A stretch of 64,000 nucleotides of DNA from Spirochaetales bacterium (GTDB lineage Bacteria > Spirochaetota > GWE2-31-10). Both the position numbers and the translations under genes were made by a program. This document shows, one piece after another, positions 16,205 through 39,455 of this stretch; within the stretch, counting starts at the first letter, position 1; every line of letters starts with the position of its first letter. The notes under the pieces are model-generated. The model did no database searches, was not told the DNA's origin, and saw only the letters and a list, made by a program, of their open reading frames with translations. The DNA is taken from the NCBI GenBank assembly GCA_017624275.1, contig JAGANG010000078.1, forward strand, positions 45,118-109,117, in the 5' to 3' direction.

Positions 16205-16435
16205 AATATTTAATCGGATAATAAAAAGCCCCTTTACACTCAAAACCGATTACACGCATAAATCTAAAAGGTACCGTTGCTATCTTCCGATCCTGGCGGG
16301 GTTAGTTTCATCATTATCGTATAGAGTCCTGAATTAAAAGAGGCAATTGAGGAATGAGGAATTGAACCTACGTATATCTTTTAGATATGTCAAATCGACC
16401 GATTAACCTTTCTCGCATTTCCCCATAAAAATGAG
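16205..16435 (-). ncRNA. ffs: candidate signal recognition particle RNA (ffs), long form with tRNA-like 5' portion
   Basis: On the minus strand the segment CCGCCAGGAUCGGAAGAUAGCAACGG resembles SRP RNA domain IV (consensus CCAGG..UCCGGAAGGAAGCAGC) with a GGAA tetraloop, compensatory closing pairs and the AGCA loop. The locus sits immediately upstream of dnaX, the conserved ffs position. An adjacent GGTTCAATTCC T-loop-like element may be an Alu-like domain. Boundaries are approximate. Confidence 0.35.
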
Positions 16436-16505
16436 CCAGAGAGGATTCGAACCTCCGACCTTTAGATCCGCAATCTAAAACTCTATCCAGCTGAGCTACT
16501 GGCTC
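16432..16505 (-). tRNA. tRNA-Arg (anticodon GCG as read)
   Basis: Cloverleaf with acceptor GAGCCAG/CTGGCTC, D-loop GCTCAGCTGGATAGAG, T-loop GGTTCGAATCC. Anticodon loop UUGCGGA. No CCA encoded. Confidence 0.8.
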
Positions 16506-16511
16506 GCTCTT

Positions 16512-16598
16512 CGGAAAGTGGGGGATTCGAACCCCCGATACGCACTAACGTATACACGCTTTCCAAGCGTGCACATTCGACCACTCTGACAACTTTCC
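16512..16598 (-). tRNA. tRNA-Ser (GGA)
   Basis: 87 nt, long variable arm, anticodon loop UUGGAAA, T-loop GGTTCGAATCC, acceptor GGAAAGT/ACTTTCC. Confidence 0.85.
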
Positions 16599-16605
16599 AG
16601 TGGAT

Positions 16606-16694
16606 CGGAGAGGAAGGGATTCGAACCCTTGGATCGGGGTAAGCCGATCAACTCCTTAGCAGGGAGCCCGATTCGACCACTCTCGCACCTCTCC
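16606..16694 (-). tRNA. tRNA-Ser (GCU)
   Basis: 89 nt, long variable arm, anticodon loop CUGCUAA, acceptor GGAGAGG/CCTCTCC. Confidence 0.85.
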
Positions 16695-16707
16695 TGTAAA
16701 TAAAAAA

Positions 16708-16794
16708 CGGAGAGCTAGGGATTCGAACCCCAGGTAGCCTCGCGACTACAACGGTTTTCAAGACCGCCTCTTTCAACCACTCAGACAGCTCTCC
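16708..16794 (-). tRNA. tRNA-Ser (UGA)
   Basis: 87 nt, long variable arm, anticodon loop CUUGAAA, acceptor GGAGAGC/GCTCTCC. Confidence 0.85.
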
Positions 16795-20040: not shown

Positions 20041-20596
20041 AACGACATCAAGCGTGTCCAAGGAGGGGAGAGGTTATAGGAGAGGGGAACCTTCGGACAT
20101 CGCAACTTTGAGATGGTTCCCCTCTCCTAAAAATTACCAACTTTGAACCCAAAACGATTTTTTAATGCCTGCCTTCGGCAGGCAAAAGGAACTTTAAACC
20201 TTCGTGGTTTAAAAAAGCTTTGAACAAAGCTTTAGCCCGGTGCCGGCATTGCCGGCGAATTGCCACACGGATTCGAAATGTCTAACGACATTTCATGAAG
20301 TGAAAAAAGTGAGAATGAACCACCGCAAGGAGTATGTTTTTTCTCTTTGGGGTTAAAGGGGGACTTCTCTTTTTGATTACAAAAAAAGAGAAATCCCCCT
20401 TAAAAACCTCGTTGTTCTCTGAACAACAAAAAAACTTCAGGGCAGGCTTGCCTGCAAAAGAAGCCTTGAACCTTGCAAAGGTTTAAAAAAACTTTGAACC
20501 AAAGTTGCATCTTAAATGCCGGCATCGCCGGCAAGCCGAAGCCTTAAACCCAGCATGGGTTTAAAAAAAATATTTGTAATAAAAAAAGGAGTACCC
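20041..20596. repeat. mosaic repeat block upstream of the LRR lipoprotein gene
   Basis: Contains the GGAGAGGGGAACC...GGTTCCCCTCTCC hairpin, the gaaatgtctaacgacatttc hairpin, the gggggacttctcttttt/aaaaagagaaatccccc hairpin and palindrome arrays. Its last about 190 nt are roughly 90% identical to 23337..23527. Confidence 0.8.
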
Positions 20597-22972
20597 ATGA
20601 AAAGATTCTTAATCTTGCCGTTAACATTCTTAATGTTAACATCCACCATCATCGGTTGTACGGAAGTACAAGAAAACACAGAAAACACACCCACAACCGA
20701 CGAACAAACTAAAGAGGAAGAAACACCGACAAAAGCCTCTTACACAATAGAACATTACAAACAAAACATTGATGACGACGAATACACCCTTGTAATTGCC
20801 GATACAGAAAACAAAAACGGCAAAATCGAAAATTATACATCAGCAATTGCAAAAGATTACGACGGATTTACATCACAAAAACCGGAACAGCAGAAAATTG
20901 CAGCAGACGGAAGTACAACGGTAAAAATCTATTACGACAGAAAAAAAATCACATTGACATTGAACCTATACGGCGGAAAAGGTGACAAAAGTATTACCGG
21001 CAAATACGGCGAGGCAGTAATCAACGCAACTGTTCCCACAAAGACAGACAGCCTTTTCAACGGCTGGGAACCGGCACTTCCTGCGACATTTCCCCTTGTG
21101 CCCACATTACATACAGCTGTATGGGTAAAAGGAAGCGACACCGTAACAGCAGACGGATGTACATATACAAAAGATATGAAAACTCTGCTGACGGCACAAA
21201 AAGACATTACAACGGCAACAATCCCCGACGGCGTAACTAAAATCGGTGAAAATGCATTTAAAGATTGTACCGCATTGACAAATATAACAATCCCGAACAG
21301 CGTGACAGAAATCGGCTTCTTCACATTTTCAGGTTGCGAAAACTTAGAATACAACGAATACAGCAACGCATTATATATCGGTAACGCCGACAATCCTTAT
21401 CTGATTCTGGTAAAAGCAAAAGACACATCGATAACATCTTGCGAAATCAACAACGACACAAAAATAATCTTATACGCAGCCTTTGACGGATGTAAAAATG
21501 TAGAAACCTTGGCAATCGGCGACGGCATTACATCATTCGACAATCTACCCATAACGCCGGCATTAAAAGAAGTCACAATCGGTAAAGGAATAACTTCAAT
21601 TTGTGATTATGCATTTTTTAATTGCAAGAACCTAACAAATGTAACACTCCCTGACAATGTGACAAAAATCGGAGAATCAGCATTCTCTTGTTGCGACAAC
21701 TTGGTAAATATATCAATCCCCGAAAGCGTAACTGAAATCGGAGACTATGCATTCTACGGCTGTGCAAGCTTGCCGGATATAACAATTCCCGACAACGTGA
21801 CGGAACTCGGAAACTATACTTTCTACGGTTGTAACAGCTTGGCGAGTATAACAATTCCCGACAACGTAACTGAAATCGGAAATCATGTTTTCTACGGTTG
21901 TGACAACTTGGCAAATATAACAATTCCCGACAACGTAACGGAAATCGGAACTCATGCATTCTACGGCTGTGCAAGCTTGGCAAATATAACAATCCCCGAC
22001 AACGTAACAGAAATCGGAAGCCATGCATTCTACAGTTGTGACAAATTGGCAAGTATAACGATTCCCGACAATGTAACTGAAATCAATGACTATACATTCT
22101 CTTGTTGTGACAACTTGGTAAATATATCAATCCCGGACAACGTGACAAAAATCGGAGAATATGCATTCTACGGCTGTGCAAGTTTGACAGACATGACAAT
22201 CCCCGACAGTGTAACTGAAATCGGTTTCAGAGCATTCAACGAGTGCAGTAACCTTACAAGTGTGACAATCGGTAACAGCGTAACTTTTATCGGTTACGAA
22301 GCATTCGAGAATTGCAGTAACTTAGAAAACGTATATATTTTCGATTTAGAAGCTTGGTGTAATATTGAGTTTGAATCCTCTGCAAATCCGCTAAGTAACG
22401 GAGCAAATTTATATTTAAACGGTAACCTGGTAAAAGATTTAGTAATCCCCGACAGCGTAGCTGAAATAAGAGGTGCTTTCGACGGTTGTTCAAGCTTAGA
22501 AAGTGTAATCATTCCTGACGGCAAGACTTCTACCGGTTGGTTCCGTTATTGCAGTAACTTAACAAGTGTTTCCATTCCGGACAGTGTAACTGAAATCAGT
22601 GGCTATGCATTCGAAGGTTGCAGTAGTTTAACAAGCGTAACAATTCCTGATAGCGTGATTACTATCGGCTACTATGCGTTCAGAGGTTGCTCTAGCCTAA
22701 TAAGCATAACAATCCCGGACGGTGTGACTGAAATCTGGAGCAGAGCATTCGAAAAGTGCAGTAGACTAACAAGTGTAATAATCCCTGACAAAGTAACTGA
22801 AATCGGTTTCAGTGCATTCAACGAGTGCAGTAACCTTACAAGTGTGACATTTAAAGATACTGTCGGCTGGAAATATGGCTGGGAAGAGATAGAAATCGAC
22901 GTAACAGATCCGGCACAAAACGCAATTTATTTAAAAGAGACTTATCACGGTAACTCTTGGTACAAAAAATAA
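20597..22972 (+). CDS. BspA-like leucine-rich-repeat surface lipoprotein
   Basis: 791 aa (ATG at 20597 behind RBS aaaggag). Lipoprotein signal MKRFLILPLTFLMLTSTIIGC. At least 20 copies of a 23-aa repeat IPDNVTEIGxYAFYGCxSLxxITIP (LRR_5/BspA type). Confidence 0.85.
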   Translation: MKRFLILPLTFLMLTSTIIGCTEVQENTENTPTTDEQTKEEETPTKASYTIEHYKQNIDDDEYTLVIADTENKNGKIENYTSAIAKDYDGFTSQKPEQQKIAADGSTTVKIYYDRKKITLTLNLYGGKGDKSITGKYGEAVINATVPTKTDSLFNGWEPALPATFPLVPTLHTAVWVKGSDTVTADGCTYTKDMKTLLTAQKDITTATIPDGVTKIGENAFKDCTALTNITIPNSVTEIGFFTFSGCENLEYNEYSNALYIGNADNPYLILVKAKDTSITSCEINNDTKIILYAAFDGCKNVETLAIGDGITSFDNLPITPALKEVTIGKGITSICDYAFFNCKNLTNVTLPDNVTKIGESAFSCCDNLVNISIPESVTEIGDYAFYGCASLPDITIPDNVTELGNYTFYGCNSLASITIPDNVTEIGNHVFYGCDNLANITIPDNVTEIGTHAFYGCASLANITIPDNVTEIGSHAFYSCDKLASITIPDNVTEINDYTFSCCDNLVNISIPDNVTKIGEYAFYGCASLTDMTIPDSVTEIGFRAFNECSNLTSVTIGNSVTFIGYEAFENCSNLENVYIFDLEAWCNIEFESSANPLSNGANLYLNGNLVKDLVIPDSVAEIRGAFDGCSSLESVIIPDGKTSTGWFRYCSNLTSVSIPDSVTEISGYAFEGCSSLTSVTIPDSVITIGYYAFRGCSSLISITIPDGVTEIWSRAFEKCSRLTSVIIPDKVTEIGFSAFNECSNLTSVTFKDTVGWKYGWEEIEIDVTDPAQNAIYLKETYHGNSWYKK
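21700..22210 (+). repeat. near-identical 69-bp tandem DNA repeats encoding the LRR units
   Basis: Repeated units aatataacaattcccgacaacgtaac(t/g)gaaatcggaa...ttctacggctgtgcaagcttggca in tandem. They also produce artefactual minus-strand ORFs. Confidence 0.85.
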
Positions 22973-23527
22973 AGTGAGAACGAACCACCGCAAGGAGTAT
23001 GTTTTTTCTCTTTGGGGTTAAAGGGGGACTTCTCTTTTTGATTACAAAAAAAGAGAAATCCCCCTTAAAAACCTCGTTGTTTCACTTGGTGTTTACAGAC
23101 GTAAACACTTCGTTCGTTCACGCAGTGAACTCACCACTGTTCTCTGAACAACAAAAAAGCTTTAGGGCAGGCTTACGCTCGGTATTTAACTGACGTTAAA
23201 TACTCCGTTCGTTCTACGAACTCACCGTTGCACAGTGACCGAGAGAACGAACTCCCGCTCCAAGCTTGCCAAGGAATGGGGAGGTCATAGGAGGGGAAAA
23301 CCTGCGGCCTGCAAAGAGCCGGTGTTCCCCTCCTAAAAATCCGTTGTTCTTAGAACAACAAAAAAGCTTCAGGGCAGGCTTGCCTGCAAAAGAAGCCTTG
23401 AACCTTGCAAAGGTTCGAAAAAGCTTTGAACCAAAGTTGCATTTTAAATGCCGGCATCGCCGGCAAAAGAAGCCTTAAACCCAAGTGGGTTTATAAAAAA
23501 ATATTTATTTTAAAAAGGAGTCATCTC
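22973..23527. repeat. mosaic repeat block upstream of the second lipoprotein gene
   Basis: Same hairpin and palindrome families as 20041..20596. Includes an 85-bp element (23068..23152) with an inverted copy at 27419..27503. Its 3' about 190 nt duplicate 20405..20596. Confidence 0.8.
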
Positions 23528-25327
23528 ATGAAAAGACTTTTAATTTTATTAACATTATTAATGTTTACTTTACCAAACTGCACAAACACTTCCGAAGACA
23601 GTGAAAACATATTCAACAATAACGAAAACACCACCCAAGACAAAACCGAAGAGGAAGAAGAACAAAAAGAAATCACGTTGACATCAAGCAAATTAACAAA
23701 TGTCACAATCAAAACTCCGCCGGTAAAAACAGAATACACCGCCGGCGAAACATTCGCCCCCGCAGGACTTTATTTGCAGGCAACATATACAGACACATAC
23801 TCCGACGGCACGCAAAAGGAAAACATCGAATTTATAGATTGCGAAACGGGAGCGGTCACATTCACAGGTACAGACTTTGCAGAGGCAGGCACAGCGACCG
23901 TCACAGTGACATACAAAGGGAAAAATGTCACATTCAGCGTAAAGGTAACAGAAAAGCCGGCATTCCCAACAATAGGAAACTACAAAATCACAGGCGAAGA
24001 CATCATAATAAGCGACTTTTCGGACATCACGGTATCGGGAAGCAGTGACGCAGAGTTCAATATATCTTTTCTCGCAACAAAACAGACACAGCTTTCACTG
24101 CCGGAAATAAGCAACATCGCAAAGGCTTTCCCAAACGCTACAATAACAGCAGATGATAAGATTTCATATACAATAAACGGCGGAACAAAAAGGGGAGATA
24201 TACCTGCTGATATTTTCACTTATAATACTTTAGTAGATAATGAATTTAAGGATTTGACAACATTTGCAATTGAAGGAAAAATATTAATTGATGAAACAAC
24301 AGATGTTAATTCCACTGAACACTATGATAATAGACCTGTAAAAATAAGAACTATTACGTTGGACAACGGCACGACTCTTAATATAACAGGAAAATATCTT
24401 GATATCGGACGAAATCGTTTTAAAGTTACTAACAATGCAGTTGTTAATCTGTCTGATGATATAGAAATTACAACATATGATAATAGTGAAAATTCTAGTC
24501 CAACTCATGCAAATATTACTTCCGACATCGCTAATACGCAATTTGACGCATTGGGCCTCACCACCCCAAACTTTGATTTAGCAATCTCTGATGAAAATTT
24601 ATATAATTTCGCTCACAATATTCTTGATAGATATGATAGTTTCGATAAGACAAAGCATAAATTAAAATCATCCTCTTATTTTAATGGTAATTTGAATAAT
24701 TCTACAAATGTTTTATATACAGGAGATGCTCTAGTATCAGAAGAAGATCGTCCAACTTTAAAGTTTTCTAGTGTTAAATATATTTCTGATAAGAATAAGT
24801 TGATAACAATGTATAATCTTGTAATAAATAATAATATTCCTGTAGAGGATAATACTAATCTAGATGTGACTGCAGATTTTACAAATATTGTATTTGAAGG
24901 AGATTTTTCTAATTTTCATAATAAAGGAAGTTTTGAAGGCATATCTCATTTTATGGGTAATCCGATGCAAGGTGTTTCAAATTCTAATGGATATGTAAAA
25001 GTTGATTACGTTGATACTAATGTAGGTGAAATATTTGGAGATATTATAGATCTTACCGACTTGTCAGATGATATAATGTATGATATAGGTTCTAATAGAA
25101 ATATGATGTTAGGAGGAGCTGCTGATGTTATAGGTATCTTTAGAGATGAGAAACAACAAGTTGCGGCTGAAAATATACGTAAGAAAGGTAGTAACCTTGG
25201 TTTTAAGCCTGTTTATTTGCAAGATAATCCTAAGCATAAAAATGAGTTTATTAAAACCCTTGCAGATTGGGAAGTGGAATATAATTCTTCGAAAAAACTT
25301 CAATCTTCAAATACTGCTCAACAGTAA
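23528..25327 (+). CDS. surface lipoprotein with N-terminal Ig-like domain and AT-rich C-terminal region
   Basis: 599 aa (ATG at 23528 behind RBS aaaggag). Lipobox LLMFTLPNC. Residues about 50-190 are GC-rich and look Ig-like (TVTVTYKGKNVTFSVKV). From about nt 24180 the composition switches to AT-rich unrelated sequence. Confidence 0.75.
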   Translation: MKRLLILLTLLMFTLPNCTNTSEDSENIFNNNENTTQDKTEEEEEQKEITLTSSKLTNVTIKTPPVKTEYTAGETFAPAGLYLQATYTDTYSDGTQKENIEFIDCETGAVTFTGTDFAEAGTATVTVTYKGKNVTFSVKVTEKPAFPTIGNYKITGEDIIISDFSDITVSGSSDAEFNISFLATKQTQLSLPEISNIAKAFPNATITADDKISYTINGGTKRGDIPADIFTYNTLVDNEFKDLTTFAIEGKILIDETTDVNSTEHYDNRPVKIRTITLDNGTTLNITGKYLDIGRNRFKVTNNAVVNLSDDIEITTYDNSENSSPTHANITSDIANTQFDALGLTTPNFDLAISDENLYNFAHNILDRYDSFDKTKHKLKSSSYFNGNLNNSTNVLYTGDALVSEEDRPTLKFSSVKYISDKNKLITMYNLVINNNIPVEDNTNLDVTADFTNIVFEGDFSNFHNKGSFEGISHFMGNPMQGVSNSNGYVKVDYVDTNVGEIFGDIIDLTDLSDDIMYDIGSNRNMMLGGAADVIGIFRDEKQQVAAENIRKKGSNLGFKPVYLQDNPKHKNEFIKTLADWEVEYNSSKKLQSSNTAQQ

Positions 25328-33512: not shown

Positions 33513-33827
33513 TTATAAATTCTTATCTATAAAATCTTCAATTTGAGCAATAAGCTGAGTTTTCAAAATTTCCTTTGTTCCCGAAACGGTTGTAGAAGCA
33601 TTCCGTAAAAAAAGGTCTGCCGGGTGAATATTCAAAGCCGTCGCAATTTTTTCAATCATCTCAAAAGACGGAAGTTGATTATATGATTCGATACAACCAA
33701 TTGTAGATGTAGCACAGTCGCAAAGTTCTGCGAGTTTTTCCTGTGAAATATGCTTTTCTTTCCTGTAGAATTTTAGGTTCTTAATAAAATCATCTTGAAA
33801 TTTCATACGTATTCTTATTTTAAGCAA
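33513..33827 (-). CDS. XRE-family helix-turn-helix transcriptional regulator
   Basis: 104 aa. HTH_3 ISQEKLAELCDCATSTIGCIE. Divergent from the 34221 operon. Confidence 0.8.
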   Translation of the reverse strand: MLKIRIRMKFQDDFIKNLKFYRKEKHISQEKLAELCDCATSTIGCIESYNQLPSFEMIEKIATALNIHPADLFLRNASTTVSGTKEILKTQLIAQIEDFIDKNL

Positions 33828-33959
33828 GAAAACTTGTATTTTTATTGCTTTAAACTAACAAAATATGCAATAATGTTGGTTGAAACAATATTTCTTAGCC
33901 ATTTATTGTTTTCACAAATAAAAACCGGAGTGCTGAAAAAAATCTGCAAAAATTTTTTT

Positions 33960-34155
33960 GGTCTAGCCGTATATCAGAGACCAGTTATGTTACGGTGAGT
34001 GAAATATAGGTTGCTGATAATGATTGTTGTTTACATTCACTTTCGGAATTTTCTTTATGGAAAATCCTATCGTTCATGTAAACGGTTTCGTTTTCGACTT
34101 TCTGAAGAAAGTCTGCAAATCGAAACCAGAGACCAGTTATGCTACGGTGAGTAGA
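33960..34155 (+). promoter_or_regulatory. two 26-nt direct repeats in the 5' leader of the 34221 operon
   Basis: tctgcaaa...cagagaccagttatgttacggtgagt (33975..34003) and tctgcaaa...cagagaccagttatgctacggtgagt (34123..34152), one mismatch. They lie between the XRE gene and the operon. Confidence 0.5.
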
Positions 34156-34220
34156 TTGCAAAAGGGAAAATCTTTCCGGTAAGGAAAGAAGAAATAAATA
34201 ATAATTTTAAGGAGAAAAAA

Positions 34221-34541
34221 ATGATTCCATTAATTCCATTACTAATAGGTGGAGGACTTATAGCGTGGGCTATAATAACTATTTCAAAACTAATAAACAT
34301 TATAAAGGGAAGATTTCAGAATGCGGCTTATGTGGAAGTAATTTCAAATAAGATAAAATCTAGTCTTGATAATGGGAATGCCAATGTTGTCAGTGTATTA
34401 AAAGTCAAAGCTTATGATTGTGACGGTAATAAACTGGGAAAAGACAAAATAGAAGGAAAATTTGATGAAGAGGTTCGAGATTTAAGAAAGGGAGAGATTC
34501 TTGATTTAGAAGATGGAGAAGTTTATACATATGAAAATTGA
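34221..34541 (+). CDS. small membrane protein (N-terminal TM helix) with LDNGNxNV motif shared with downstream paralogs
   Basis: 106 aa. RBS aaggag. Stop overlaps the start of the AAA+ ATPase gene (translational coupling). Confidence 0.55.
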   Translation: MIPLIPLLIGGGLIAWAIITISKLINIIKGRFQNAAYVEVISNKIKSSLDNGNANVVSVLKVKAYDCDGNKLGKDKIEGKFDEEVRDLRKGEILDLEDGEVYTYEN

Positions 34542-35895
34542 TGAAAATATTGTCTTTTTTCCAGACGGTAGCATTGATGAATTATTTGAAAAGTTTAGAG
34601 ATGATTTGGAAGTTGCATTAAACAAGGCAGAAAAAATCTGTTCAAAAATTCATGTTTATCTAATTAAAAATTATCTTAATTATTTTCCAAACTCAGATCA
34701 GGATATTGTTTTTAAATATTTTGATTCTTCCCGATTTTCCGGAGAAGATGAAGATATTGTTCATAATTTTATAAAAGAAATGAATAATATAAATGAAAGG
34801 TGGAAAATGGGAAACAATGGTCTTAAAAAACATAATCTAAAGATTATCGTTTTCTTTAATTTTCCCAATAAAGAAGCAATAGAAGATTATCTGTTCGGAA
34901 AAAATAGTCCTAAAAACGATAACGGAACTCCGACTTTAAATATTTTACCTTTAGAACCTAAATACAATTTTAATCAAATGGTTCTAAATGAAAGTGTTAA
35001 ATCTTCCTTGGAAAGTTGTAGCACGATGATAAAAAATATGGACAAGATTTATAAAGAATGGGGATTTGAAGAAATCGACCCGGTTCAAAAATCTGTTCTA
35101 AACTTTTTCGGTCCTCCTGGAACGGGAAAAACCATGGCAGCCCATGCAATAGCAGCGGAGCTGGGCAGAAAGATTCTTGCGGTAAATTATGCAGAAATTG
35201 AATCAAAATTTGTCGGTGAGGCACCAAAAAATTTAATTTCAGCATTTGAAATAGCAAAGAAAGAATCATGTGTTTTATTTTTTGATGAGGCAGATTCATT
35301 CCTTGGAAAAAGAATTACAAGTGTAAGCTCCAGCAGTGACCAAGCAGTAAACTCACTCCGAAGTCAGATGTTAATCCTTTTGGAAACATTCGACATCACT
35401 GTAATATTTGCTACCAACCTAAATGAAAACTACGACAAAGCTTTTGACAGTCGAATTTTGTGCAGTATAAAATTCGAATTACCTGACAGAGAATTGCGTA
35501 AACAATCTATTGCAAAAATGATTCCCTCAAAAGCTCCTATCAACAGAGAAATTCTTACAGATGAACTTTTGTATAAATTAAGCGATTTAACAGAAGGATT
35601 CTCACATCGAGAGTTAAAAAATGTTGCTTTGATGGTACTGACTGAATGCTGTAAGAAAGATTCTCAAATCACTGAAGAATTGCTTGTAGATGTATTTACT
35701 CGCAAAAAAGAAGAGTTTGAGGAACGAAAAAACAAGGAGGGAAAGAGAAAAGAAGAACTCGGTAATAAGATTACTGAAAAGCTTAAAAGCGGTGACTACA
35801 ATGTTAGTAAATCAGCAGCTTCAGAATCTACTGATAATTCGGAATCTCAAGCAAATAGTAACGAGGAAAAGACTGAAGATAAAAAGGAGAAATAA
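34513..35895 (+). CDS. AAA+ ATPase with novel about-190-aa N-terminal domain
   Basis: 460 aa. Walker A GPPGTGKT, Walker B VLFFDEAD, sensor-1 ATN, Arg finger DSR. Lys/Glu-rich C-terminal tail. Alternative ATG at 34531. Confidence 0.85.
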   Translation: MEKFIHMKIDENIVFFPDGSIDELFEKFRDDLEVALNKAEKICSKIHVYLIKNYLNYFPNSDQDIVFKYFDSSRFSGEDEDIVHNFIKEMNNINERWKMGNNGLKKHNLKIIVFFNFPNKEAIEDYLFGKNSPKNDNGTPTLNILPLEPKYNFNQMVLNESVKSSLESCSTMIKNMDKIYKEWGFEEIDPVQKSVLNFFGPPGTGKTMAAHAIAAELGRKILAVNYAEIESKFVGEAPKNLISAFEIAKKESCVLFFDEADSFLGKRITSVSSSSDQAVNSLRSQMLILLETFDITVIFATNLNENYDKAFDSRILCSIKFELPDRELRKQSIAKMIPSKAPINREILTDELLYKLSDLTEGFSHRELKNVALMVLTECCKKDSQITEELLVDVFTRKKEEFEERKNKEGKRKEELGNKITEKLKSGDYNVSKSAASESTDNSESQANSNEEKTEDKKEK

Positions 35896-36057
35896 TAGGG
35901 AAATATATTTGAAGATATAGGAAAGTCTTTTCTTTATTTTTGGGATTTAAGGAGACAAGAAAAAAATAAGTGTAGATGATGTTAAGGTGATTCGTGTTTT
36001 TGGTAAAAAAGATGAAAATTACGATTATGAAGACAAATTAAATAAAGGAGATAAAAA

Positions 36058-36579
36058 ATGAAAATAGGATTTAAAGAATTAAACAAAATTAATAAGCACT
36101 TAAATAAGTACTTAAAAAAGTCCGGAAAGGAAATTGGAAAAATTATTGATAAATACGGTAAAGATATAAGTAAAATTGTAGTGGAAGAAGGCGGAAAAAT
36201 CATTGAATATCTAAAAGAAAAAGCCAGTGATATTGATGAAGCAATTGATAATGCCGGCGGACTTGAAAATGTATTAAAAACACTGTGGAATACAGAAGAA
36301 GAAGTAGTTGATGTTTTAACATTAGAAATGATGATTTCTTGGTGTAAACAAAATTTGTCTTCTGATACAGAAAGAGCCAGAGCTGTAATCTTACTTTTGA
36401 AACCGTCTCAATTTCCGGATGATTCAAAAATTGATGACTGTCGTTTTTGTTGCTTTGTAGGTTTTCTTGATAATAACGATGACATTATTGATTCAAAGAA
36501 GAAGTATTTTTACTCCGATACTATGGATTTGAACTTGAAAGAAACTTTCGGTGATAAAGATATGATTATTTTGAATTAA
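36058..36579 (+). CDS. hypothetical protein, paralog family member (C-terminal FGDKDMIILN)
   Basis: 173 aa, RBS aaaggag. N-terminal lysine-rich repeats. C-terminal about 60 aa homologous to 36591 and 36942. Confidence 0.55.
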   Translation: MKIGFKELNKINKHLNKYLKKSGKEIGKIIDKYGKDISKIVVEEGGKIIEYLKEKASDIDEAIDNAGGLENVLKTLWNTEEEVVDVLTLEMMISWCKQNLSSDTERARAVILLLKPSQFPDDSKIDDCRFCCFVGFLDNNDDIIDSKKKYFYSDTMDLNLKETFGDKDMIILN

Positions 36580-36590
36580 AGGAGAGTGAT

Positions 36591-36938
36591 ATGGGATTAT
36601 TAGATTTTATATTTGATATATTTGATGATTTATGGAAAACATTGTGTCGTTTTGGTAAAACAATAAAAAAGGCAATTATTTCATTTACAAAAAATATTGT
36701 ATCTTTTTTCAAAGATCCGAAACGATTTAAAAAACTCGCTAAAACTAAAAAGATTTTGGCAACGACAATAAAAGAAAATTTAGACAACGGAAATGTTAAC
36801 GTGATAAATTGTCTTTATGATACAGAAAAAGAACAAGTTATTGAATTGGAAGAAAATGCTATAGGATACGAAAACGGAGAAATGGATCCAGAACTTGCTC
36901 GTAACTTTGGCAATAAAGACATGATTATTTTGCAATAA
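36591..36938 (+). CDS. hypothetical protein, paralog family member (C-terminal NFGNKDMIILQ)
   Basis: 115 aa, RBS aaaggag. Amphipathic N-terminus. Shares about 90 aa with 36942. Confidence 0.55.
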   Translation: MGLLDFIFDIFDDLWKTLCRFGKTIKKAIISFTKNIVSFFKDPKRFKKLAKTKKILATTIKENLDNGNVNVINCLYDTEKEQVIELEENAIGYENGEMDPELARNFGNKDMIILQ

Positions 36939-36941
36939 GGA

Positions 36942-37349
36942 ATGGGTATGAAAATGGAAAATATAATTACTACTGTTGTTTGGACTGTTATCGGAGCTGT
37001 AGCTGTCGGTTTAATTGGAAGCTTAATATATTTTAGAGCAAAGAAAAATCCTCTGGCTATGTTGAAAGCTAATGCAATAGAAGTGGGAGTGATAAAATTT
37101 CAAGATATTATTGCTTTTTTCAAAAATCCGGCATGTCTTGACACTCTTAAGAAAAATAAAAATCTTCTTGCTGTAGCAATTAGAGAAGAAGAAGCTGACG
37201 GTACTATATTTGTACAGGCTTGTCTTTATGATGAAGAAAAAGAAAAAGTCATTGATATGGAGAATTCTTTTATTGTCTACAAATCAAAGCATATGGATGA
37301 TGAATTAACAAAAAACTTCGGTAATAAAGACATGATTGTTTTGCAATAA
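36942..37349 (+). CDS. hypothetical membrane protein, paralog family member (C-terminal NFGNKDMIVLQ)
   Basis: 135 aa, N-terminal TM helix. Tandem paralog of 36591. Confidence 0.55.
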   Translation: MGMKMENIITTVVWTVIGAVAVGLIGSLIYFRAKKNPLAMLKANAIEVGVIKFQDIIAFFKNPACLDTLKKNKNLLAVAIREEEADGTIFVQACLYDEEKEKVIDMENSFIVYKSKHMDDELTKNFGNKDMIVLQ

Positions 37350-37409
37350 ATTTTTTTTATGTTTCGTTGCAAACTAAATTAAACATCGATATGTAATAAC
37401 AGCATATTT

Positions 37410-37438
37410 TAAGGAGGTAGAAATGCCTCCTTTTTTTA
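37410..37438 (+). terminator. rho-independent terminator ending the 34221-37349 operon
   Basis: aggagg-tagaaatg-cctcct hairpin followed by a T7 run. Confidence 0.6.
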
Positions 37439-37439
37439 A

Positions 37440-37515
37440 TGTTTTATAGAAATACATTTCTAAAAGTTATGAAAAAACAGGAGTTTTAGAAACGTATTTC
37501 TAAAACTTGACTTTT
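37440..37515 (+). promoter_or_regulatory. two near-palindromic 18-20-nt operator-like sites upstream of the 37544 gene
   Basis: ttagaaatacatttctaaaag and ttagaaacgtatttctaaaac, about 45 nt apart, followed by ttgac. Confidence 0.3.
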
Positions 37516-37543: not shown

Positions 37544-38785
37544 ATGGAAAATCAAGAAAACTTACTTGTTCGATATGATTATTTGGAAACACTAAAAAGA
37601 TTTAAAGGTAAACAATTAATAAAAGTTATTACCGGGATTCGCCGTTGCGGAAAATCCACTTTGTTTGATTTGTTTATAAATCACTTATTAGAAAATAATA
37701 TTCCAGAACAAAACATTATAAAAATCAATTTTGAATCCCCTGATTTTTTTGAATTGCAAGATTGGCTTTCTGTTTATAAATATATAAAAGAAAAACTTTC
37801 CTCTGATTCAATGAATTATATTTTTCTTGATGAAATTCAAAATGTTCCTGATTTTCAAAAGGCTGTTGATGGTCTTTTTATAATGAAAAATTGCGATATT
37901 TACATAACAGGCTCAAATGCATATTTGCTTTCCGGGGAATTAGCGACTTTGTTGTCTGGTCGCTATGTAGAAATAAAAATGCAGCCACTTTCGTTTAAAG
38001 AATATCTTTCTGCCTATGATGATAAATCTGATTTGCCTTCTAAATATCGAAAGTATATCCAGTTTGGTTCTTTTCCCTATATTCTGCAACTTTCTGAAGA
38101 AAAAGATATTCGGTCGTATTTGGAAGGAATTTACAATACTGTTGTACTAAAGGATATTGTTGCTCGTAGAAAAATTGCTGATGTTGGAATGTTGGAAAAA
38201 GTTATTCGATTTATGTTTGATAATATTGGAAATCCAACTTCTGCCACAAATATTGCCAATACAATGACTTCGACTCGCCAAAAAATTTCTTATCATACTG
38301 TAGAAAATTATCTTTCGGCACTTTTGGATAGTTTTATTTTTTATAAAGCCGAACGATATGATGTAAAAGGAAAGCAATATTTATCTACAAATGCAAAGTA
38401 TTATTTGTGTGATATTGGGCTTAGATATTATTTACTAGGAACAAAACCTGCTGATTTTGGACATATTTTGGAAAATATTGTTTTTTTGGAACTTTTGCGG
38501 CGTGGAAATGAAGTTTATGTTGGCAAAGTTGATGATTCTGAAATTGATTTTGTTGCAATTTATAATGGTGAAAAAACATATTATCAAGTGGCATATACAG
38601 TAATTGATTCAGACAATTCCGTCAAAACATTGACCCGAGAATTAAAGCCGTTAAAATCTGTAAAAGATAATTGTGAAAAGATTTTATTAACGATGGACAA
38701 TATTCCGCCGGTTTCTTACGACGGAATAAAGCAAAAATATGTTTTGGATTGGTTGTTGGAAAAGTTACAGCGAAATCAAAATTGA
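37544..38785 (+). CDS. AAA+ superfamily ATPase with DUF4143 C-terminal domain
   Basis: 413 aa. Walker A GIRRCGKST, Walker B IFLDEIQ. Architecture matches the widespread 'ATP-binding protein' (COG1373) family. Confidence 0.8.
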   Translation: MENQENLLVRYDYLETLKRFKGKQLIKVITGIRRCGKSTLFDLFINHLLENNIPEQNIIKINFESPDFFELQDWLSVYKYIKEKLSSDSMNYIFLDEIQNVPDFQKAVDGLFIMKNCDIYITGSNAYLLSGELATLLSGRYVEIKMQPLSFKEYLSAYDDKSDLPSKYRKYIQFGSFPYILQLSEEKDIRSYLEGIYNTVVLKDIVARRKIADVGMLEKVIRFMFDNIGNPTSATNIANTMTSTRQKISYHTVENYLSALLDSFIFYKAERYDVKGKQYLSTNAKYYLCDIGLRYYLLGTKPADFGHILENIVFLELLRRGNEVYVGKVDDSEIDFVAIYNGEKTYYQVAYTVIDSDNSVKTLTRELKPLKSVKDNCEKILLTMDNIPPVSYDGIKQKYVLDWLLEKLQRNQN

Positions 38786-38979
38786 TAAAAACAGTTTTGT
38801 TATATTTAACGGAGATAAAACAAAAGATTTCAGGAACGGAAAAATCCATTGTACACAAAAACCTCTTCGATTGAAATTACGTAATATCTGTGGTGATGAA
38901 ACTATTTGGTGTGTGTAATGTAAACTTGTTTTTCAAAAATGTGGTATAGTACGCTTTTATAAAATTGGAGGATAGATAT

Positions 38980-39204
38980 ATGGTTAGTTCATTTACATTG
39001 AAGACTGATGAATTAGATAATAACTTTCTTGCTACAATAAAAAAATTATTTGCAGGTAAAGAAATTGAAATTACTATTCAAGACTCTCAAGCTGATACAG
39101 ATTATCTTTTGAAAAATCCAGTAAATAAAGCTCATCTACTTTCTTCTATCTCATCTTTGGAAAAAAATGAAAATATAAAAGTTTTTTCAGGAGATGATTT
39201 TTGA
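38980..39204 (+). CDS. yefM: YefM/Phd-family antitoxin
   Basis: About 74 aa from the ATG at 38980 (RBS ggagg). Overlaps the toxin start by 4 nt. Confidence 0.7.
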   Translation: MVSSFTLKTDELDNNFLATIKKLFAGKEIEITIQDSQADTDYLLKNPVNKAHLLSSISSLEKNENIKVFSGDDF

Positions 39205-39455
39205 ACATAATATTTTCTGAAGAATCTTTCTCAGACTATCACAGTTGGGCATTTGAAGATAAAAAATTCTACAAGAAGATAAATGAATTAATAAAAGATA
39301 TAATTCGTTCCCCTTTTTCTGGAATAGGAAAACCTGAGCCTTTAAAATATGAACTTTCGGGATATTGGTCTCGCAGAATAAACGAAGAACATAGATTGGT
39401 TTATAAAGTAATCGATAATTCTATTTTTATTGCTTCTTGTAAATATCATTATTAA
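39201..39455 (+). CDS. yoeB: YoeB/Txe-family mRNA interferase toxin
   Basis: 84 aa. SWAFEDKKFYKKINELIKDI...RRINEEHRLVYKV matches YoeB. Confidence 0.8.
   Translation: MNIIFSEESFSDYHSWAFEDKKFYKKINELIKDIIRSPFSGIGKPEPLKYELSGYWSRRINEEHRLVYKVIDNSIFIASCKYHY

Follow-up and report, generated by a model that had tools for sequence, protein, structure and literature searches.

A stretch of 64,000 nucleotides from a Spirochaetales bacterium (contig JAGANG010000078.1, positions 45,118 to 109,117 of the forward strand; this whole stretch is referred to as the window) carries, at 34221–37349, an operon of five plus-strand genes, designated here T, the AAA+ ATPase, L, S and M. The operon is a conserved cassette, in which a classic AAA+ ATPase is encoded together with four paralogous, mostly membrane-targeted partners that share a new domain, and this description is directly supported. 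The cassette varies extremely from strain to strain, and a role in conflict or defense is therefore suggested. It is tentatively explained as a five-part membrane-associated AAA+ unfoldase system acting in conflict, that is, in defense, abortive infection or a toxin-antitoxin-like process, a reading held at somewhat less than even confidence. As far as the searches reached, the partner domain family, the T/L/S/M organization, the mimicry of the partner motif by the ATPase tail and the within-species polymorphism of the cassette are new, and the AAA+ superfamily, of which the ATPase itself is an ordinary member, is known. The components of the cassette are listed below.

34221–34541, plus strand: T, 106 amino acids (aa), an N-terminal transmembrane (TM) helix and a truncated ("short-form") partner domain
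34531–35895, plus strand (the open reading frame, ORF, opens at 34513): AAA+ ATPase of the classic clade, 454 aa
about 34531–34932, plus strand: N-domain of the ATPase, followed by a linker to 35085
35086–35715, plus strand: AAA core of the ATPase
35716–35892, plus strand: Lys/Glu tail of the ATPase
35758–35805, plus strand: motif of the ATPase tail, LGNKITEKLKSGDYNV, resembling the first strand-turn-strand of the partner domain (in S: ILATTIKENLDNGNVNV)
36058–36579, plus strand: L, a soluble paralog of 173 aa with a helical Lys-rich head; its domain ends in FGDKDMIILN
36591–36938, plus strand: S, a paralog of 115 aa with an N-terminal amphipathic helix; its domain ends in FGNKDMIILQ
36942–37349, plus strand: M, a paralog of 135 aa with an N-terminal TM anchor followed by RAKKN; its domain ends in FGNKDMIVLQ

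The partner domain and the AAA+ ATPase

The partner domain is a new family, nearly always placed at the C-terminus. L, S and M share it over about 85 aa, and their similarity is far beyond chance, because a single domain profile matches all three proteins (L at E=3e-25, S at E=5e-35 and M at E=4e-36). An earlier note on this DNA, made from the sequence alone, had recognized a conserved C-terminal domain common to the three small proteins; its presence and position are borne out. In a profile search of 1.84 billion representative proteins (E<=0.001) the family comprised 390 members, and the 150 best listed span 55–241 aa. The domain ends no more than one residue from the protein C-terminus in 247 of the 263 copies found in 83 loci, and in L the match reaches the last residue. 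No match to the domain was found in Pfam (2025), NCBIfam (2026), PADLOC or PHROGs. In Pfam, S and M gave nothing at E<=0.1, and L and T gave weak sub-threshold matches unrelated to Snf7 or PspA. The AlphaFold2 (AF2) model of S, with a predicted local distance difference test (pLDDT) score of 71.5, begins with N-terminal helices, continues with a sheet of four strands and a single helix, and ends in a terminal strand. The structure and profile searches with S gave no match among PDB or viral structures: Foldseek against viral structures returned nothing at E<=0.001, and the best hit of the S-family profile against the PDB sequences had E=0.31.

The partners differ in the segment preceding the domain. 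L has no TM segment (maximum Kyte-Doolittle value 0.72), and S has an amphipathic N-terminus with a hydrophobic moment of 0.77 at residues 10–27. M reaches a Kyte-Doolittle value of 2.22 at residues 8–26, and the third position of the triad is TM-flagged in most loci; by the positive-inside rule, the domain of M is predicted to be cytoplasmic. T reaches 2.23 over residues 1–19. After its TM helix it carries the K-x-x-L-x-N-G-N-x-N-V-V strand-turn-strand of the small proteins, and the profile-profile comparison (hhalign) of 77 T proteins with the domain family gave a probability of 81% (E=1.2e-5). By these sequence comparisons, T is a fourth, truncated paralog of the partner domain.

The ATPase belongs to the classic-clade AAA+ proteins (PF00004), and all the defining motifs are present. 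It scores 98.6 bits against Pfam AAA, for which the cut-off is 21.2 (E=5e-28). The Walker A (GPPGTGKT, 35110–35133) and Walker B (LFFDEADS, 35275–35298) motifs reported by the earlier note were located, as was its arginine finger: R314, within FDSRI at 35443–35457, is placed like the classic AAA+ arginine finger and is invariant in the family alignment of 42 homologs (A4). FATN (35407–35418) lies at the position expected for sensor-1. The pore-loop-1 region reads SKFVGE (35203–35220, plus strand, residues 231–236) and has the aromatic-hydrophobic-Gly pattern; E230, S231, K232 and G235 are invariant across the 42 family members, and the Walker A, Walker B, pore-loop, FATN and FDSRI motifs are all invariant or nearly so. 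An aromatic-hydrophobic-Gly pore loop 1 is a mark of the AAA+ motors that thread polypeptides. By its motifs, the ATPase appears to be a threading-competent motor.

The ATG at 34531 is the probable start codon of the ATPase, since the resulting 454 aa equal the length of P0001, a 99%-identical ATPase homolog, and a GGAG sequence stands 9–10 nt upstream. With this revised start the ORF overlaps the stop codon of T (34539–34541) by 11 nt, in agreement with the overlap noticed before. A 24-nt tandem repeat lies at the 3′ end of the T gene (34469–34523; 2.3 copies, 75% matches); it encodes the acidic end ...RDLRKGEILDLEDGEV... and overlaps the ribosome-binding site and the start codon of the ATPase.

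The first 185 residues of the ATPase form, in the AF2 model, a soluble alpha/beta domain without a TM anchor. In the hhalign comparison of the ATPase with the partner families, this N-domain is unrelated to the partner domain or to T (probability <1%), and on this ground a full homotypic-domain model, in which the N-domain would equal the partner domain, was rejected. The C-terminal tail behaves differently. The earlier note had recorded both the small TM protein and the Lys/Glu-rich tail, which are present, and had overlooked their relation to the motif of the paralogs. With a hidden Markov model (HMM) built from non-ATPase ORFs only, the tail of the window's ATPase scores 19.3 bits; scores of at least 12 bits are reached by 31% of 85 ATPase tails and by 0.1% of 1,700 composition-matched shuffles. 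I420 and Y429 of the motif are nearly invariant in alignment A4. On this sequence evidence, the ATPase tail shares the hairpin motif of the partners as a fragment of about 16–20 aa, and not as a copy of the full domain.

Homologs of the ATPase are numerous at 40–99% identity, and the nearest named bacterial family is IetA/IteA (PADLOC 9.3e-32; NCBIfam 4.4e-26, 91.9 bits). The match to phrog_3757 (E=4e-50, function unknown) aligns to the ATPase core and tail only.

Distribution and within-species variation

The linkage of the cassette was counted in 93 related loci. Labels such as L002 or L094 denote the related loci or contigs retrieved for comparison, L002 and L095 being one and the same conspecific contig. 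Domain paralogs occur in 83 of the 93 loci, always on the ATPase strand and in the fixed order L-S-M, so that the earlier view of the operon as a coherent unit is upheld by the neighborhood check. The triad consists of a soluble L of 130–180 aa, an S with an amphipathic head (about 108–117 aa) and an M with an N-terminal TM segment (about 118–146 aa). Spirochaetes and Helicobacter have the triad downstream of the ATPase; Bacteroidota and others have it upstream. Directly upstream of the ATPase ORF, which it often overlaps, a T-like ORF ends no more than 120 nt from the start of that ORF in at least 66 loci. All-against-all clustering of the 93 loci gave no other widely recurrent family around the ATPase; only the ATPase and the partner family recur. 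No match for the cassette as a whole was found in the libraries and literature searched, which agrees with the earlier judgment that it cannot be assigned to a described system.

The L/S/M triad is old and differentiated, because the best reciprocal hits stay within the class across the deepest split, that between the two arrangements (L 44/62, S 41/62 and M 45/62, with about 21 expected by chance). The earlier picture of a freely diversified array of paralogs gives way to this ancient triad of fixed order, complemented by T.

In a scan of one genome per species over 185,579 species, 510 stretches were confirmed by tblastn. This number is a lower bound, because the scan requires exact motif patterns. 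The cassette is patchy over nine or more phyla; the 510 loci include Treponema, Brachyspira, several non-pylori Helicobacter, many Bacteroidales/Prevotella, Bacillota, cyanobacteria, Desulfovibrio, Lentisphaerae, Kiritimatiellae and Patescibacteria. The partner family was not found in IMG/VR, in 72,556 plasmids or in 50,697 phage records, the S protein had no tblastn match in the plasmid or phage collections, and no PHROGs family matched T, L, S or M. Relatives of the ATPase at about 40% identity occur on the Moraxella phage Mcat5 and on a Lactobacillus plasmid; in these two records, the annotated genes around the ATPase match are unlike the T/L/S/M arrangement.

Some operons carry additions. 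In L008, L009/L010, L021, L023 and L028, extra paralogs have an LRAT head (NlpC/P60 superfamily, PLAAT-like, of phospholipase/acyltransferase type; Pfam LRAT E=1e-24 to 9e-29) and a hydrophobic segment preceding the domain. In L008, L021, L027 and L028, DUF1232 membrane heads are fused to T-type short domains. L007 holds seven paralogs and an NYN-domain gene inside the operon, and L011 an FGE-sulfatase-like gene. XRE or WYL regulators and some defense or mobile-element genes adjoin some loci. A protein of 83–109 aa with two CxxC...RHPNGxxKGxH zinc-ribbon-like repeats is encoded just upstream of T in Brachyspira and others (7 loci; for example L005 3649–3900 and L009 4383–4712), and it may be an alternative regulator or an extra component. 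In cassettes of the Bacteroidales type, two more conserved families of about 133 aa follow the ATPase on the same strand (9 and 7 loci; for example L057 6204–6608 and L080 7665–8066).

The variation within the species was assessed in 11 haplotypes, namely the window and ten further contigs sharing an identical PC4-like neighbor gene. The minimum aa identity and the median synonymous divergence (dS) are as follows.

Flanking genes (CtpB, 5′-nucleotidase, SPOR): identity 0.99 or higher, dS about 0.04
T: identity 0.19, dS 0.84
ATPase N-domain: identity 0.49, dS 0.89
ATPase AAA core: identity 0.93, dS 0.23
ATPase tail: identity 0.50, dS 0.29
L: identity 0.50, dS 0.27
S: identity 0.33, dS 0.60
M: identity 0.53, dS 0.33

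In a sliding DNA comparison with L002, identity is 97–100% up to the start codon of T, 37–74% in T and the N-domain, 93–99% in the motor and 51–82% in the stretch from the tail through L, S and M; from 37350 on it is back at 96%. The ratio of nonsynonymous to synonymous divergence (dN/dS) is 0.57 in S and 0.45 in M, versus 0.02–0.09 in CtpB, 5′-nucleotidase, DUF4143, nitroreductase and SPOR; the short XRE and YefM genes have 0.25. In the ATPase tail the median dN is 0.195 versus a dS of 0.286. The alleles are mosaic, with six classes of T, four of the N-domain, one of the core, three of the tail, three of L, six of S and six of M. S varies in both its head and its domain, and conservation is highest at the extreme C-terminal tail in S and L, though not in M or T. 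Old allelic lineages are thus kept or exchanged at a fixed locus, and the pattern is judged here to be that of loci under frequency-dependent conflict. The N-domain and the tail co-vary with the partners while the motor does not, which is the best available indirect evidence of an interaction between them.

Proposed mechanism and competing explanations

In the proposed mechanism, T and M would reside in the inner membrane through their TM helices, S would bind through its amphipathic helix, and L would remain soluble. The small alpha/beta domain of all four would face the cytoplasm and would probably mediate their assembly. The hexameric ATPase would dock on this assembly via its variable N-domain and, in the window's clade, also via the tail hairpin, which would mimic the first strands of the partner domain. 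The KFVG pore loops could then pull the partners, most plausibly from the invariant free C-terminal strand FG[DN]KDMI[IV]L-COOH. Steady ATP-dependent unfolding or extraction would keep the membrane-active partners harmless, much as IetA reportedly serves as the antitoxin to IetS; in other genomes, the partners held in check would also include LRAT-type lipid enzymes. A disturbance of the motor or of its docking surfaces, such as a phage protein might cause, would let the partners accumulate and damage the membrane. The parts of this scheme that are inferred are the physical contacts and the membrane topology, which way the regulation runs, what triggers it and what happens to the cell.

The earlier note had suggested a conflict system or an unfoldase with cognate partners, and both ideas are strengthened by the allelic divergence confined to the partners, N-domain and tail, and by the LRAT-headed paralogs. 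A wider form of the reading, held a shade more tentatively still, is that of an undescribed pan-bacterial AAA+ membrane machine of conflict or immunity, having its own partner fold and an ESCRT-III/Vps4-like logic, in which an ancient balanced polymorphism swaps the recognition surfaces and the partners as cassettes around a constant core. The literature search gave no account of the cassette among IetA-like systems, DUF1232-AAA defense systems or anti-phage systems of AAA+ and small TM proteins.

Several points weigh against a conflict role. First, the module is present in 11/11 conspecific haplotypes at the same site about 34 kb from dnaA, unlike most defense systems, which vary in presence and absence. 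Second, dN/dS stays below 1, and raised dS shows old alleles and recombination rather than positive selection as such. Third, defense or mobile genes are a minority of the immediate neighbors (WYL in 4/125, integrase in 3 and few others), and no PADLOC-DB v2.0.0 system model matched T, L, S or M; the PADLOC match PDC-S01 belongs to the neighboring DUF4143 gene, which is unlinked to the module outside the window's lineage. The ancient differentiated L/S/M triad suits a structural hetero-oligomeric machine equally well as an effector set, and the tail motif is limited to the clade with the window's gene order, being missing from the Bacteroidota-type ATPases. Finally, the AF2 models are moderate (pLDDT 71 and 78), and the topology and the contact between the ATPase and the partners are reached indirectly.

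Some of these observations would fit a membrane-remodeling or repair machine with the logic of ESCRT-III/Vps4 (or of PspA and an ATPase). Here L, S, M and T would be subunits of a membrane polymer, and the ATPase would read the C-terminal end to disassemble or remodel it. Such a machine is favored by the old, differentiated triad, whose order is fixed across phyla, by the N-terminal membrane-binding elements and the conserved C-terminal tail on every subunit, by the single classic-clade AAA+ with a specialized N-domain (CdvC and Vps4 are among the ATPase matches) and by a core locus near oriC, found in every conspecific haplotype. The likeness to Vps4/CdvC with ESCRT-III/CdvB extends to the plan of one classic AAA+ with a dedicated N-domain serving several paralogous small subunits, which bind the membrane N-terminally and carry a conserved extreme C-terminal element. 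However, the partners are alpha/beta, in contrast to the helical hairpins of ESCRT-III and PspA, and Pfam shows no Snf7 or PspA match for them, and the N-domain is alpha/beta rather than an MIT three-helix bundle. The strain divergence, to 19–53% identity, is hard to square with a housekeeping machine, the 510 confirmed stretches (a lower bound) are few for 185,579 species, and some versions have paralogs headed by LRAT enzymes. The cassette as a Vps4/ESCRT-III (Cdv) system proper was rejected: it has no MIT domain, no Snf7 fold or PspA hairpin, and its alpha/beta partners are hypervariable between strains. A remodeling function in the broader sense is considered unlikely; if it were true, the cassette would be a bacterial ESCRT-III/Vps4 analogue built from unrelated parts.

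The same variability can be read as the mark of interbacterial competition or kin discrimination, with membrane-active toxins and cognate immunity proteins, for which the ATPase and T would be an export or loading device that reads the C-terminal signal domain. The cassette is always present, hypervariable and shuffled as a mosaic, as at toxin-immunity and bacteriocin loci; it joins a constant C-terminal module to variable heads, including LRAT lipid enzymes, and the head of S is amphipathic and peptide-like. Such an explanation is nevertheless improbable, rather more so than remodeling, for the conserved core includes neither signal peptides nor recognizable secretion-system genes, the positive-inside rule puts the domain of M in the cytoplasm, and L, S and M each keep to one orthologous class across phyla and are not exchanged freely in the manner of toxin-immunity pairs. 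Nor are classic-clade AAA+ proteins known to act as primary export motors, which also counts against it.

That the cassette is a divergent member of the IetAS toxin-antitoxin or defense family is very improbable: IetA/IteA is the best named match of the ATPase, but the identity fails because the ATPase scores 91.9 bits where an equivalog in NCBIfam NF042959 needs 510, over residues 148–412 that cover the AAA core and lid only, and because no subtilisin-like IetS protease is found in the operon or among the recurrent families of the 93 loci, and the operon has five genes instead of two. No peptidase domain was detected in T, L, S or M by Pfam or PADLOC. IetAS resembles the cassette in that a classic AAA+ is co-encoded with potentially toxic partners and is the nearest named bacterial ATPase core; it differs in its unrelated N-domain and in having a protease in place of the four paralogous partners with the new domain. 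IetA has been reported as the antitoxin of the IetS protease (PMC13069673), and by analogy this role may serve as a functional precedent for the cassette ATPase in the preferred reading of an unfoldase that holds its partners in check.

Two further groups of known systems share features with the proposed unfoldase cassette. Kaur et al. (2020, PMC7159879) described the coupling by effector-associated domains (EADs), in which a small non-enzymatic domain stands on the terminus of a core NTPase and on the products of adjacent genes. The cassette is alike in having a shared domain fused to membrane or enzymatic heads in the adjacent products: domain copies stand on LRAT, TM and DUF1232 heads. Unlike in EAD systems, the ATPase has only a hairpin-sized motif of about 16–20 aa, in one clade, the domain has no Pfam match, the paralogs are an old triad of fixed order and not duplicates that arose within single lineages, and the core is a single classic AAA+ rather than MoxR-vWA, STAND or GAP1. 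As to membership in EAD1-10 or bDLD, no Pfam or PADLOC family matches S or M, in libraries whose coverage of every EAD profile is unconfirmed. Msp1/ATAD1 and FtsH likewise combine a classic-clade motor and an aromatic pore loop with neighboring small membrane-anchored proteins that have an exposed terminus. In contrast to them, the cassette ATPase has no protease domain by Pfam, and its N-terminus is modeled as soluble alpha/beta without a TM anchor. Any attachment of the ATPase to the membrane would thus come from T, S or M, and extraction is proposed by analogy.

If the cassette is a conflict system, it would be a widespread immune or toxin module in gut and oral Treponema, Brachyspira, non-pylori Helicobacter, Prevotella and other Bacteroidales, and cyanobacteria, among others. 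It would rely on membrane-active proteins checked by an unfoldase, unlike the nuclease- and NADase-centered systems that dominate the current catalogues. With its constant motor, around which the N-domain, tail and partners are swapped, the cassette is in addition a natural experiment on the co-evolution of AAA+ proteins with their adaptors or substrates, and the family of about 85 aa with strict C-terminal placement is a new domain for experimental study.

Flanking elements and other observations in the window

The earlier note had also described a divergent XRE gene, two 26-nt repeats in the leader and a terminator around the five-gene operon, and each of these was found in its place. They are listed below with a remnant inside the operon.

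33513–33827, minus strand: divergent XRE-family helix-turn-helix regulator, 104 aa (Pfam HTH_3 E=1.2e-10)
33975–34152, plus strand: leader element, a single 152-nt unit delimited by direct repeats of 26 nt
35896–36057, plus strand: ORF remnant, a decayed copy of a small extra ORF
37411–37432, plus strand: intrinsic-terminator-like hairpin, a 9-bp stem with 4 G-C pairs followed by the T run TTTTTAATGT

The XRE gene is a lineage-specific accessory outside the universal core. Its protein is 94–100% identical across the 11 conspecific haplotypes, and a divergent upstream XRE-type ORF occurs in only 11 of the 87 non-redundant loci; on this count the regulator, which the earlier note had included in the module, was rejected as a core component. 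The DUF4143 ATPase and the YefM/YoeB pair, previously noted as neighbors of the island-like module, were likewise rejected as members of the system, being linked only in conspecific or syntenic contigs: in the all-against-all clustering, the DUF4143 and YoeB genes recur in only 6 syntenic loci. The DUF4143/AAA_14 ATPase gene lies at 37544–38785 (PADLOC PDC-S01 E=5e-162). The YoeB toxin gene at 39201–39455 is confirmed; for the ORF that precedes it, the match to YefM is only weak. The YefM/YoeB pair (38965–39455) is decaying in some conspecific contigs: L097 and L099 have a shortened YoeB of 66 aa, and no YoeB is called in L093, L101 and L102.

The leader is specific to the window's lineage and may work as a regulatory RNA or as an array of operators. 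Its direct repeats at 33975–34000 and 34127–34152 are identical in 25/26 positions (96%; repeat family D6). Two 26-mers are present in 10/11 haplotypes, and three at 152-nt spacing in the L002/L095 contig, where the 152-nt unit forms 2.2 tandem copies. The unit is 98% conserved between haplotypes although the downstream genes are replaced. The leader RNA at 33940–34225 folds more stably than all 200 shuffles (z=-3.3), and the Rfam search of the operon and the leader (E<=1) gave no match. Within the leader repeat, a 52-aa ORF (34024–34182, plus strand) reads ...KPETSYATVSRLQKGKSFR, much like a fragment of an XRE-type helix-turn-helix; Pfam gives no match, and the ORF could be a relic gene or due to chance.

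Downstream of the ATPase, an extra ORF of 54–65 aa is intact in 5/11 haplotypes and encodes a truncated paralog. In the window, frame 0 of 35896–36057 ends in ...NKGDKK*, like the 64-aa ORF of L002, but is interrupted by stop codons. The hairpin at 37411–37432 is predicted from its sequence to be a terminator that closes the operon. Between this terminator and the DUF4143/PDC-S01 gene lies a 22-nt inverted repeat (37444–37505; 91% complementary, with an 18-nt spacer), which is also readable as a 25-nt direct repeat and could be an operator or a second terminator.

The window begins at the replication genes dnaA (35–1504) and dnaN (1750–2859); yidC, a radA-like gene and dnaX come later. Its first 14 kb or so have 25–28% G+C, versus 30–45% in the rest. 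Four tRNA genes and the small signal recognition particle RNA are clustered at 16236–16794 (minus strand) and are the sole Rfam matches of the window at the gathering threshold. A BspA-type leucine-rich-repeat protein (818 aa, 20516–22972) and a Big_3 Ig-like protein (640 aa, 23405–25327) are encoded in a stretch of 40–45% G+C. Because their lengths differ among the conspecific contigs (793–845 aa for the BspA-type protein and 589–601 aa for the Big_3 protein), this stretch is suspected to be a second locus of variable surface proteins.

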